NCBI RefSeq assembly: GCF_013122565.1
Contig: NZ_CP053258.1
Reading direction: 5' to 3' (one strand)
Length of the DNA: 64,000 nucleotides
Source: Escherichia coli
GTDB taxonomy: Bacteria; Pseudomonadota; Gammaproteobacteria; Enterobacterales; Enterobacteriaceae
The position numbers are program-made. Below are positions 8,801 to 11,800 of the stretch, piece by piece (positions within the stretch are counted from its first letter, which is position 1; every line of letters starts with the position of its first letter).

Positions 8801-11800
8801 TAAGTTGTAAATTTCCCGGCTAAGCGGATCGACGGCCCTGCTCGCTATCTGCCAGGCTAAATGCGGCCAGACGAACGCCCAGCCGACCAACACCAGCCAC
8901 CACCAGCCCGGCGGCGGGTGCGAAACCAGCGTTGAAGCAATCGGTAAGAACATGCCAGCCAGGCCAACCGCACGGGGTAGTCTGACGCGACGGGCGAAGC
9001 GCAGCCCGGACCGCTGATGTTCATTTTGAGGAGTTAAAGGAGGTTCCTCCCCATGCGACGCCGCTTTTTTGAAAAAGTTTTCATCATTCATTATTTTTGG
9101 GAACATTCAGAAACAATTTTCCCAAATTATAGAGACGGGGCTAAAGGCTGAAGTATGAAATTTCGGGTGAGCCATTTTCGTAGCTCACCCGTTAGCACTA
9201 TCAGGTATCAGGCGGCTTTCTTGAGGCAGGCACTCATAAACTTATTACGATCATCACCTTTCAGAGATTGCTGCGTTGCTTGATTATTACATTCACGCAT
9301 CTTTTGCTGCTGTGGCGTCAAACTTTTTTCACCAGGCGCAGACTTACTGTTCTTCAGGCAATCACTCATGTAGGTCTTACGAGCATCCCCTTTCAACGCC
9401 TGCGCCGTCGCCTGCTGATTACAGGAGGTCATACGCTGTTGTTGTGGGGTTAAGGTTCTCTCGGCAGCGCCGACGGTGGTTAAAAAAACCAGACCGAAAA
9501 GCAAGGTAACCAGTAATGTAATTTTCATAGCACCATCCCTCTTCATGTTTTCACCATGAGCGTATGCGCCCGTGATCTGCCATTAAGTCTGGTTGCTAAC
9601 AGCAAAAAAACCACCCGGCAGCGAAAATTCACTGCCGGGAGCGGTTTTATTTCAGCCCCAGAGCGGCTTTCATGGTGTAGAAGAGATCGGTCTGGTCGGT
9701 CAGTCCAACGACATTGGCGGCATGCGGGCCATACGCCGCAATACGCAACTGACTGCCGGTATGTTCTTGTGAATCCTCTTCGGAGTTCCCGTAGCTCATC
9801 ACCATCACTGCGCCATCTTTGGTATTTAGCGCCTGGGTGAGGCCCGGAGCTTTGGTATCCGGCGCAACAATCTGGCTGGCGTGGGCGTGATCAGCGGTGA
9901 CTATGACCAACGTGTTACCCTCCTTTTTAGCGAATTCCAGCGCCCGTTGTACGGCTTCATCGAGATCGACCGTCTCGCCAATTTGCCCACAAGGATTCGC
10001 AGCATGATCCTGTTTATCGATTGACGCACCTTCAACTTGCAGGAAAAAGCCTTTCTCATTTTTACTCAACAATTCAATGGCTTTGTCGGTCATCTGCGCC
10101 AGGGTCGGTACACTGTCATTACGTTGCGGATTAGGCGTACAGGTGACTGCGGGCTTATCGATATTGCCGTGGTACGTTGCTTTCGGTCCTAGCCAGCGCA
10201 CTGGCATATTGCCGTCAGCAAACAGGCCAAGCAGGGGTTTTTGCTGATTCGCTTCCGTCACCGCATTTAGCGAGGCGGCATCGTTCACCAACTGATAACC
10301 ACGCGCCTGTGCCTGTTCACGCAGCGTTTTTCCCTGCCATTCACCTGCGGTTGCCGTTTCAGCAAAGGTTTTTGCGCCGCCGCCAAGCGTAACGTCGGCA
10401 CGAGCGTTAAGCAGCTGTTCGGTAATCGATCCTTTTCCGCCTTTTTCCAGAGCGTTACCCGGACATTTTTCACTGGTCGCGCTCGGACCGTAGCATTTGC
10501 GCGAGGTCACATGCGCCACCAGCGCGGCGGGCGTGGCATCCTGCAACTCTGCGGTAGAAACGTTACCGGTCGCCAGACCTGCGGCTTTTGCCATTTCCAG
10601 AATCGTTGGGTGATCTTTTTCGTGAATATCGACGCCCAGCGCACCGTTATAGGTTTTGACACCGGTTGACCAGGCGGTTGCTGATGCAGCCGAGTCGGTG
10701 ACGTAGTCCGGTTTGCCGGTTTTTTTATTCAGCGCATAGTGTGTGTATTGTCCGGTAAGCGGTAAGGCATCGATACCTTTAAAAAAGCCGCCCGCACCTT
10801 CAGCATAATTGCGTGCGGCAGTAATTTCCGAATCCCCCATCCCATCGCCAATCAGCAAAATAATATTTTTTACAGGTTTATCGCTAAGAGAATCACGCAG
10901 AGCGGCGGTCTGGTCACCCGTTAAACGGCGAGCACCGCCGGGTGCAGTAATATCGCCCTGAGCAGCCCGGTTTTCCAGAACAGGCATTTCTGGTGTCCGG
11001 GCTTTTGTCACAGGGGAAAACAGTAACGGTAAGAGTGCCAGTGCAATAGTGCTTTGTTTCACTTTATTTTCTCCATGTACAAATACATTAAAAAATAAAA
11101 ACAAAGCAACTATAAGTATCGGCCGTGACAGCTTTATGACAGCTGTTGAAAAGATTAACTTTTTACTGACGAGGATGCTTCAATAACTTCTTTACATAAT
11201 TGCGCAGCAGCTCCGTATCGTCGTCAGGAATGCTGGCATCAGGCTTTACCTCGTAAAGAGCTCCCTCCACCTGATCAATCAAGCGCTGTTGGTCATTTTG
11301 TGCCATATTGCGAAGCATTGCAGTGACGATAATCTCCAAAGCTTCTACCTGCGCGCACAGTTCTTTCGACTCTTCTTCTTTTTGGGCAAGCTTTAATAAC
11401 AACTCAGCAATGAGATTTTTCATGCCTGTATTTCCTTATCCAACGTATGGAGAAGTTAACATTATGTTTCACAACTTCATAGTGTCTGGAGGTATTATTT
11501 TTATGACAAAGGAAATACTTTGCGCAAATGTTCTTTTTTTGATTACCAGCGAAACGTTTCTCATATTTAAATAATCAGCCACACAAAGAACGCGCCTTTA
11601 ATTATCAACCTTAACTATAAACAAAAGTTATGGAATATATTCTCTGCGTTTACTTACAACTAAGAGAAAAAACTCACCGCATGACCATTAAAGTCAGGAA
11701 TAAATTAGCTTCCCGTTCATCATTTTTGTGATCTTACGCACATCTTTGAGATTACGCACTTTCTTCACCAGTACGTCGCACGCTTTGTCAGCAGAAGATT

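Follow-up and report, generated by a model that had tools for sequence, protein, structure and literature searches.

The phoA-psiF locus and the phoA promoter

The window, meaning the whole 64-kb stretch of DNA analyzed here, carries the phoA-psiF unit from the chromosome of a bacterium of the E. coli group. The gene order is iraP-phoA-psiF-dgcC and the annotation is the same as that of E. coli chromosomes, to which the sequence is 98.1% identical (98.1-98.6% for the closest match among 5426 complete E. coli genomes). K-12 has the identical gene order and the 118-nt phoA-psiF spacer, and the two intergenic sequences differ at 2 nt. At 1416 nt, phoA has the same length as K-12 b0383 and its product, which carries the active-site DSA motif, agrees with the K-12 protein at 467 of 471 residues and matches Pfam PF00245 well above the gathering threshold (5e-137; 457.7 bits, cut-off 24.4). 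PsiF is 100% identical to its K-12 counterpart and matches the psiF repeat PF07769 in two separate stretches (115.5 bits). Rfam searches returned no family at 8800-11900 in a permissive scan and none over the whole window at the gathering threshold.

Table 1. Features of the phoA-psiF unit in window coordinates.
Feature	Position	Strand	Remark
Pho box CTGTCATAAAGCTGTCAC, PhoB binding site in place of a -35 element	11125-11142	-	matches 17 of 18 consensus positions
phoA promoter -10 hexamer TATAGT	11109-11114	-	from sequence; identical in K-12
phoA Shine-Dalgarno GGAG	11071-11074	-	8 nt before GTG
phoA CDS, alkaline phosphatase	9647-11062	-	471 aa; GTG start, TAA stop
Intrinsic-terminator-like element	9604-9639	-	stem 9639-9632/9621-9614, UGG spacer, U7 9610-9604
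Invariant block CCAGACTTA, candidate sigma-S-type -10 of a psiF promoter (alternatively anti-SD)	9584-9592	-	from conservation profile
psiF ribosome-binding region GAAGAGGGATGGTGCTATG (SD through AUG)	9526-9544	-	complementary to sRNA CpxQ
psiF CDS	9208-9528	-	106 aa, two PsiF repeats; K-12-annotated start
Hairpin after psiF, GGGTGAGC...GCTCACCC	9165-9190	-	likely 3' end of the unit

The phoA promoter has the architecture of a Pho regulon promoter. Pho boxes consist of two direct 7-bp repeats (CTGTCAT) that lie 11 bp apart and are joined by an A/T-rich 4-bp linker. The site upstream of phoA shows this layout (CTGTCAT-AAAG-CTGTCAC) and departs from the consensus CTGTCATAWAWCTGTCAY at a single position. 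It is the only sequence in the window with at most one mismatch to the consensus (0.01 expected by chance) and also the only one with at most three (0.14 expected). Ten nucleotides separate the end of the box at 11125 from the start of TATAGT at 11114, as in K-12, placing the box where a -35 element would lie, and the phoA mRNA is predicted to begin near 11102. The K-12 promoter shares the position, the box architecture with its two 7-bp repeats 11 bp apart and 10 bp upstream of the -10, the TATAGT hexamer, the Shine-Dalgarno (SD) sequence and the GTG, and differs from the promoter described here by three substitutions. One of them, a T>C change in the second repeat, distinguishes our box from that of K-12 (GTTGTCAC) and moves it nearer to the consensus by creating CTGTCAC; about 11% of complete E. 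coli records carry this variant, and the exact 50-nt context of the box is present in 590 of 5391. The other two, a G>T change in the spacer and a C>T change immediately past the -10, occur together in none of the 5426 complete E. coli genomes. In most of 63 phoA loci compared, the start codon lies about 60-64 nt downstream of a box scoring 13-17 out of 18. PhoB ChIP-seq in K-12 places a peak at 401676, the orthologous Pho box, and phoA expression in that strain is 200-fold PhoB-dependent.

The GTG start of phoA is preceded by a conserved ribosome-binding site. AAAATAAA separates GGAG (11074-11071) from the GTG (11062-11060), and CATGGAGAAAATAAA is kept in nearly all of the 63 loci. Start codons at these loci are GTG (51) or TTG (12) and never ATG; that a non-ATG start is universal for phoA in Enterobacteriaceae may be a small point worth recording. 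An ORF lister had placed the phoA start at a TTG at 11104, which a previous reading of the sequence alone had dismissed as an artefact. That judgment holds: the TTG sits approximately at the predicted +1, lacks an SD, and in other genera in-frame stop codons are found 0-16 codons upstream of the GTG or TTG start. The Pho box, SD and GTG by which the same reading had defined phoA are likewise all present on the minus strand and conserved across genera. This is known biology, and few E. coli features were characterized earlier than the phoA promoter with its GTG start and the phoA-psiF gene arrangement.

A conserved hairpin between phoA and psiF

Downstream of phoA lies an element that looks like a genuine intrinsic terminator. 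Its arms, CCCGGCAG (9639-9632) and CTGCCGGG (9621-9614), form a perfect, GC-rich 8-bp stem that a hairpin scan extends to 11 pairs around a 4-nt loop, so that the stem, counted at 8-11 bp, carries 7-8 GC pairs. The stem begins 7 nt past the phoA TAA (gap 9646-9640); the sequence-only reading had described the stem and T-run correctly, with a distance of 8 nt that is one too many. A 66-nt segment folds at -30.3 kcal/mol (z = -4.85) and none of 200 shuffles was as stable. A strict scan of the window, requiring a run of six or more T's after a perfect stem of 7 bp or longer, recovered the phoA hairpin only, with 0.13 such sites expected. A GC-rich hairpin and U-tract following a stop codon are the hallmarks of intrinsic terminators, and the 3-nt UGG spacer represents a mild departure. 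Position 9640, which is G in K-12, is T in this strain and a closing G-U pair is thereby lost.

Comparison across about 60 Enterobacteriaceae species indicates that the structure is under selection. Among 59 sequences from about 15 genera, 96.1% of alignment cells at the stem are paired and five of the eight pairs show changes on both sides; the resulting covariation score was reached by none of 500 shuffles, and slid controls were 31-60% paired. The hairpin is also more stable where phoA is present, with a median of -20.75 kcal/mol as opposed to -9.1 kcal/mol where phoA has been lost (Mann-Whitney p = 1e-6).

The hairpin could alternatively serve mainly in 3'-end protection or processing, with phoA-psiF transcribed as a whole and exonucleases or RNase E leaving a stable phoA fragment that ends at the hairpin. 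The UGG between the perfect stem and the U-tract would fit such a role, as would the K-12 expression data described below, in which psiF reaches about half the density of phoA and is fully PhoB-dependent. We consider this unlikely. The run of six to seven T's is conserved to the same degree as the stem, with TGG plus three T's showing little or no variation. Protection of a 3' end would not call for this. Pairing of the UGG with bases upstream of it in many genera brings the U-tract directly against the stem. The element is, moreover, the only canonical terminator-like site in the 64 kb. We favor termination as the principal function of the hairpin. Lists of K-12 Term-seq 3' ends from phosphate-replete media, in which phoA is silent, contain none at the phoA hairpin. 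A full-text literature search found no report on termination at this site, and no usable data on it came from the supplementary material to TERMITe, Dar & Sorek, Conway et al. and the nanopore paper.

Two probable routes to psiF expression

Published K-12 data suggest that the phoA terminator is leaky, with much transcription reading through to psiF. DESeq2 counts under low phosphate are 310,112 in the wild type and 1,548 in a phoB deletion for phoA, and 32,618 and 755, respectively, for psiF, corresponding to a 43-fold PhoB dependence of psiF. Per nucleotide, the psiF/phoA ratio is 0.46 in the wild type and rises to 2.15 when phoB is deleted; the wild-type value is not a termination efficiency, as steady-state reads mix termination with mRNA decay. 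In the sequence-only reading the terminator was strong and separated the two genes, which appears to overstate its effect in light of the 43-fold PhoB dependence and the roughly 46% relative density, confounded as the latter is by mRNA stability. In the comparison with published phoA-psiF transcript data that it proposed, the low-phosphate RNA-seq points to leakiness; the phosphate-replete Term-seq, from media in which phoA is silent, lists no 3' end at the site. All evidence taken from the literature, on PhoB binding, on the PhoB dependence of both genes and on the RpoS dependence of psiF, stems from K-12 and EDL933, strains other than the one sequenced here.

If the terminator were instead efficient, as the hairpin and U7 would suggest on paper, the PhoB dependence of psiF would have to come from a second PhoB-dependent promoter that escaped detection in the phoA 3' end or the intergenic region. 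This is very improbable and already disfavored by the data at hand: the K-12 ChIP-seq lists a single PhoB site in the region, upstream of phoA, and the window contains no other Pho-box-like sequence with three or fewer mismatches that could serve psiF. Under the leaky-terminator reading, psiF would be PhoB-dependent because polymerases read through into it.

In addition to read-through, psiF probably has its own stationary-phase promoter of the RpoS type. In stationary-phase EDL933, psiF is 73-fold RpoS-dependent and phoA is missing from the same differential-expression list; psiF is also Crl-dependent. Several other literature hits for 'psiF' referred to PsifA promoter constructs and were discarded. 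A psiF 3' end is present in K-12 grown in LB to OD 2.0, when phoA is off; the ends that Term-seq reports, 403649(+) and 403612(-), correspond to window positions 9160 and 9197 and back the hairpin after psiF as the likely end of the unit. The expectation that psiF would need read-through or a promoter of its own was accordingly well placed, and the published data suggest both.

A candidate for this promoter overlaps the tail of the terminator. The invariant block CCAGACTTA lies at a fixed distance from the T-run, 12 nt past TGGTTTTTT, equal to 11 nt past the T7 of the window. The composite TGGTTTTTT-N12-CCANNCTTA occurs once per locus in 59 loci and always upstream of psiF, and the arrangement TGGTTTTTT-N12-CCAnnCTTA is kept even in lineages lacking phoA and the Pho box. 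The extended -10 consensus of sigma-S promoters is KCTAYRCTTAA. With CCAGACTTAA (9592-9583), the window agrees at -13C, -11A, -9A, -8C, -7T, -6T, -5A and -4A, or 8 of 10 positions; its departures are a C in place of T at -12 and the weak -35 sequence GTGGTT. Elements of this kind are recognized by -13C, -11A, -7T and a TAA tail. Positions -13, -12, -11, -8 (74 of 75 sequences), -7, -6 and -5 are invariant across genera, and these are the diagnostic ones. TGGTTTTTT-N12-CCAnnCTTA consequently looks like a sigma-S promoter, an inference that includes the psiF +1 and in which the motif was read post hoc. A simple sigma-70 consensus scan of the phoA-psiF spacer found no promoter.

The conservation of the block might also reflect RNA pairing. 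psiF would then lack a promoter of its own, all of its mRNA being read-through from phoAp or iraPp, and CCAGACTTA would pair as an anti-SD with AAGGAUGGU, restraining psiF translation. 5'-ACCAGACUU-3' can indeed form a duplex with the region of the psiF SD, interrupted by a tandem GA/AG mismatch, and in Kosakonia and Phytobacter the block reads ACCATCCTT and is perfectly complementary. In most species, single-sequence MFE folds join block and SD, seven pairs are 94-98% paired, and SD occlusion reaches z = 2-3 in the class of perfect complements. RNAalifold, however, yields no consensus structure, and covariation is absent from the outer stem. Occlusion in the window and in other Escherichia is that of shuffled sequences, with an SD pairing probability of 0.56 compared to 0.53 (z = 0.23), and the leader fold has a z of -1.8. 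On the first three of these grounds (consensus structure, outer-stem covariation and Escherichia occlusion) we demoted the anti-SD leader from a candidate model to a rival. It also leaves the fixed spacing to the T-tract unexplained, and a local promoter is required both by RpoS-dependent psiF expression without phoA and by the lineages devoid of phoA and Pho box. We therefore regard this reading as rather unlikely and retain the RpoS-type promoter as the preferred interpretation of the block.

The psiF ribosome-binding region can form an interrupted 19-bp duplex (5+9+5 bp) with CpxQ. By itself this complementarity is not decisive in statistical terms, given that 10 of 500 shuffled seeds scored as well and other tiles of the window scored higher; support for the interaction comes from the experiments of a preprint only.

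Proposed model and comparison with known systems

Together, these observations are best accommodated by a model with PhoB-driven phoA, a leaky terminator and an additional RpoS-type psiF promoter, which as a whole we consider quite probable. Under phosphate limitation, phospho-PhoB bound to the Pho box at 11142-11125 would stand in for a -35 element and bring RNA polymerase with sigma-70 to the -10 hexamer TATAGT. The phoA mRNA would start near 11102 and be translated from the GTG at 11062 behind GGAG. The hairpin with its UGG-U7 tail, 7 nt past the stop, would end and probably stabilize most phoA transcripts, while a substantial fraction of polymerases would proceed into psiF. psiF would probably also be transcribed from its own RpoS-type promoter, whose upstream half lies over the terminator T-tract and whose -10-like element is CCAGACTTAA, and the unit would end at the hairpin after psiF.

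More tentatively, the roughly 30-nt stretch following phoA could be a module with two functions, conserved among Enterobacteriaceae, in which the TGG-U7 tail doubles as the upstream half of the psiF promoter and a single element both insulates phoA and launches psiF. As only the PhoB-driven read-through mRNA would contain the -10 block, the block could act there as an anti-SD, making psiF translation dependent on the promoter used. We see this extension as a possibility, on balance doubtful. A promoter overlapping the terminator, if real, would account for the reported membership of psiF in three regulons, those of Pho, RpoS/Crl and CpxQ. The gain in basic knowledge is small and the practical value is that of a calibration case, in which a reader of the sequence alone obtained the correct regulatory anatomy.

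phoA-psiF has been cited as an operon (PMC10294691, PMC3978041, PMC2648988). The single-operon label used for K-12 in databases does not reflect the conserved internal terminator or the RpoS-dependent, phoA-independent expression of psiF, and thereby hides an apparently independent route to this gene. There is also a likeness to partial, attenuating intraoperonic terminators, in which a GC-rich hairpin and U-tract similarly lie between co-regulated genes and the upstream mRNA is the more abundant one. The phoA:psiF density of about 2:1 resembles these systems, with the difference that the phoA element has no known regulatory input.

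The phoA promoter and start codon

The minus-strand genes iraP, phoA, psiF and dgcC/adrA form a four-gene array spanning positions 7991-11423 of the window. Queried with 2.4 kb of the region, 5425 of the 5426 complete E. coli genomes gave a match (95-99% identity), under which the annotated features carry exactly the iraP/phoA/psiF/dgcC set of names. The genes and the phoA-psiF spacer (118 nt) are as long as in K-12 MG1655, PhoA is identical to its K-12 counterpart at 467 of 471 residues, and the PsiF and DgcC proteins are each 100% identical. Pfam searches returned Alk_phosphatase for PhoA (5e-137), two PsiF repeats for PsiF, Anti-adapt_IraP for IraP and MASE2 plus GGDEF for DgcC. 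The best identity to any complete E. coli RefSeq genome is 98.1-98.6% over 2.4-9.6 kb (window 1-11500), indicating that the source is an E. coli-group lineage absent from that collection.

Features of the iraP-dgcC region in window coordinates
Feature	Position	Strand	Remarks
ddlA	11885-12979		divergent to the minus-strand genes
iraP	11423-11163	minus	
Pho box	11142-11125	minus	CTGTCATAAAGCTGTCAC; 17/18 to consensus
phoA -10 hexamer	11114-11109	minus	TATAGT; 10 nt downstream of Pho box
phoA Shine-Dalgarno (SD)	11074-11071	minus	GGAG; 8 nt before GTG 11062
phoA	11062-9647	minus	
Hairpin stem	9639-9632/9621-9614	minus	perfect 8-bp stem, CCCGGCAG/CTGCCGGG
T-run	9610-9604	minus	T7 after TGG spacer
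Composite pattern	9584-9613	minus	TGGTTTTTT-N12-CCANNCTTA
C-C-A-n-n-C-T-T-A block	9592-9584	minus	invariant or nearly so across 75 leaders
psiF SD-to-AUG	9544-9526	minus	GAAGAGGGATGGTGCTATG
psiF	9528-9208	minus	
psiF-dgcC hairpin	9165-9190		
Sigma-70-like promoter match	9069-9097	plus	TTGAAA-17-TATTTT
Promoter match to antisense 3' end	9069-9197	plus	predicted RNA of ~94 nt
dgcC/adrA	9106-7991	minus	

The Pho box claimed for phoA in the sequence-only reading is indeed present and is the sole match in the 64 kb both at up to three mismatches (0.14 expected) and at up to one (0.01 expected). The orthologous box in K-12 carries the only PhoB ChIP-seq peak of the region (Fitzgerald et al., 2023; PMC10294691). 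At the sequence level the promoter displays every feature looked for in the Pho regulon and is predicted to belong to it. Three substitutions distinguish it from the K-12 promoter. One, a T>C change in the second Pho-box repeat, yields the consensus CTGTCAC and is present in other E. coli, its exact 50-nt context occurring in 590 of 5391 E. coli records. The remaining two (GAGACT>GATACT and TATAGTC>TATAGTT) were found combined with T>C in no complete E. coli genome, the best match being 97.5% over 81 nt.

The GTG start with its SD, also proposed in that reading, agrees with the K-12 annotation, and the alternative TTG at 11104 called by the ORF lister proved to be the suspected artefact: it lies 5 nt past the -10 hexamer, at or before the predicted +1, and has no SD. 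Among 63 aligned loci of other species (L004-L083 of the cross-genus set), the phoA start is GTG in 51, TTG in 12 and ATG in none. CATGGAGAAAATAAA is near-invariant ahead of the start across loci and many genera carry an in-frame stop 0-16 codons upstream of it. This comparison suggests that a non-ATG phoA start is under selection.

The gap between the iraP stop and the Pho box is only ~20 nt (11163-11142) and contains no terminator-like structure. iraP transcripts probably run on into phoA and may explain the basal level of phoA reads when phoB is deleted in K-12. A K-12 Term-seq 3' end located 103 nt into the phoA ORF (401850; window 10959, minus strand) was recorded in LB at OD 0.4 and OD 2.0, where phoA is uninduced, and could represent iraP read-through or premature termination.

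The phoA-psiF hairpin across genera

The predicted 8-bp stem-loop and T-run between phoA and psiF were recovered, with a single numerical correction: the stem begins 7 nt (9646-9640) and not 8 nt past the phoA stop. Scanning and folding lengthen the stem to 11 pairs closed by a 4-nt loop, and the 66-nt fold of the element has a dG of -30.3 kcal/mol (z = -4.85). When both strands of the entire window were searched with strict criteria (a perfect stem of 7 bp or more, a loop of 3-12 nt, at least 6 T's within 4 nt), this was the only site returned (0.13 expected). Judged by its sequence, the element shows all the characteristics of a putative intrinsic terminator.

A PsiF scan using one genome per species (Escherichia, Citrobacter, Salmonella, Enterobacter, Klebsiella, Raoultella, Kosakonia, Leclercia, Lelliottia, Phytobacter, Trabulsiella and others) identified 80 loci, sixty-odd of which retain the iraP-phoA-psiF order. 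Most of these carry the hairpin and TGG-T6-7 at an equal distance past the phoA stop; in a few Citrobacter species the stem is weakened or the T-run broken despite an intact phoA. Across an alignment of 59 distinct sequences, the 8 stem pairs show standard pairing in 96.1% of cells, five of them have changed on both sides (CG to GC, GC to AU, CG to UA) and none of 500 shuffles reached the observed covariation score. As a control, shifting the partner by 1-3 columns lowered pairing to 31-60%. This represents good evidence for selection on the RNA structure of the hairpin.

phoA is deleted in ~15 lineages (L017, L024, L026, L028-L030, L034, L035, L053, L058, L062, L063, L067, L068 and L078), including Salmonella arizonae and diarizonae, the E. 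cloacae/E. hormaechei group, C. sedlakii, Leclercia sp. and Pluralibacter. The loss is independent in several Enterobacteriaceae lineages and occurred by internal deletion. Several phoA-less loci keep the Pho box and the first and last phoA codons, fused upstream of psiF. The Pho box is absent from others, Salmonella among them, and in S. arizonae and diarizonae the right arm is all that is left of the hairpin. The hairpin has usually decayed without phoA, with a median dG of -9.1 vs -20.75 kcal/mol with phoA (Mann-Whitney p = 1e-6, in a grouping that includes two or three misclassified loci), and the T-run is kept despite this decay.

Sources of psiF RNA

A conservation profile of 75 distinct leaders after the hairpin reveals the footprint TGGTTTTTT, whose T, G, G and three T's vary little or not at all, separated by 11-12 variable positions from the C-C-A-n-n-C-T-T-A block, whose distance to the psiF SD varies from ~20 to ~140 nt. 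Each of 59 loci, drawn from many genera, has exactly one copy of the composite pattern, in every case ahead of psiF, and the pattern persists in phoA-less loci without the hairpin. Sigma-S promoters follow the consensus KCTAYRCTTAA, with -13C, -11A, -8C, -7T and a TAA tail being typical. Read as a -10 region, CCAGACTTAA possesses all five of these, varies between genera at -10 and -9, and departs in its C at -12 and its -35 region GTGGTT. On balance we lean slightly towards reading the CCAGACTTAA block as a sigma-S-type promoter of psiF that overlaps the tail of the terminator. The block may instead act as an anti-SD, 5'-ACCAGACUU-3' pairing with the psiF SD AAGGAUGGU. Kosakonia and Phytobacter have the perfect complement, and the pairing is present in single-sequence folds of most species. 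However, RNAalifold yields no consensus structure, the stem of this pairing shows no covariation and the SD pairing probability in Escherichia is 0.56 vs 0.53 for shuffled leaders (z = 0.23), and the anti-SD is consequently retained only as a rival to the sigma-S-type promoter.

In K-12 under low phosphate, DESeq2-normalised counts for phoA are 318,602 and 301,623 in the wild type vs 1,490 and 1,607 in the phoB deletion, and those for psiF 36,626 and 28,610 vs 852 and 659 (PMC10294691), making psiF 43-fold PhoB-dependent. As neither K-12 ChIP-seq in the region nor the window scan at up to three mismatches revealed a second PhoB site, read-through of the hairpin must be the source. The length-normalised psiF density computed here from these counts is ~46% of that of phoA in the wild type, a ratio confounded by differential mRNA stability and read-counting rules, and does not fit a terminator strongly separating both genes. 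Without phoB the psiF:phoA density ratio is ~2.15, implying that some psiF RNA arises independently of PhoB. Three further observations likewise point to such an origin. psiF is 73-fold lower in a stationary-phase rpoS mutant of EDL933 (E. coli O157:H7), with phoA absent from the differential-expression list and iraP (yaiB) changing only 2-fold; it appears on a microarray-based Crl-dependent list attributed to Typas et al. (2007); and in LB at OD 2.0, K-12 Term-seq records a 3' end of psiF at 403649 (window 9160). The K-12 Term-seq lists from LB and M63, two media expected to keep phoA off, contain no 3' end at the phoA hairpin, and a literature search for 3'-end mapping under phosphate limitation found none. 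The terminator appears real but leaky. The strong separation originally proposed finds no support in the K-12 RNA-seq ratio; the expectation that psiF needs read-through or its own promoter holds, and psiF is likely driven by both.

The psiF-dgcC interval and established biology

According to a 2025 preprint, the sRNA CpxQ targets psiF near the SD and represses PsiF, the protein being elevated in a cpxQ deletion. The K-12 sRNA can pair with the psiF SD-to-AUG sequence GAAGAGGGATGGTGCTATG over 5+9+5 bp, a complementarity that alone is not statistically exceptional in shuffle and window-wide controls. The psiF-dgcC hairpin lacks a U-tract on either strand. On each strand a K-12 Term-seq 3' end nevertheless lies a few nt beyond it, at 403649(+) (window 9160) and 403612(-) (window 9197), the latter being antisense and abundant (~23,000 reads, LB OD 0.4). 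The sigma-70-like promoter match faces this psiF-distal hairpin; together, predicted promoter and antisense 3' end would give a ~94-nt RNA antisense to the dgcC start and 5' UTR, for which we found no Rfam match and a fold z of -1.65.

Overall, the original observation is confirmed and its interpretation supported with two caveats, the apparent leakiness of the terminator and the likely dual source of psiF RNA. Hairpin covariation, the universal non-ATG phoA start, hairpin decay after phoA loss and the possible psiF-promoter block are small and unsurprising additions. The Pho box, the PhoB-activated phoAp, the GTG start and the position of psiF downstream of phoA are all established E. coli biology, and phoA-psiF is cited as an operon (PMC10294691, PMC3978041, PMC2648988).
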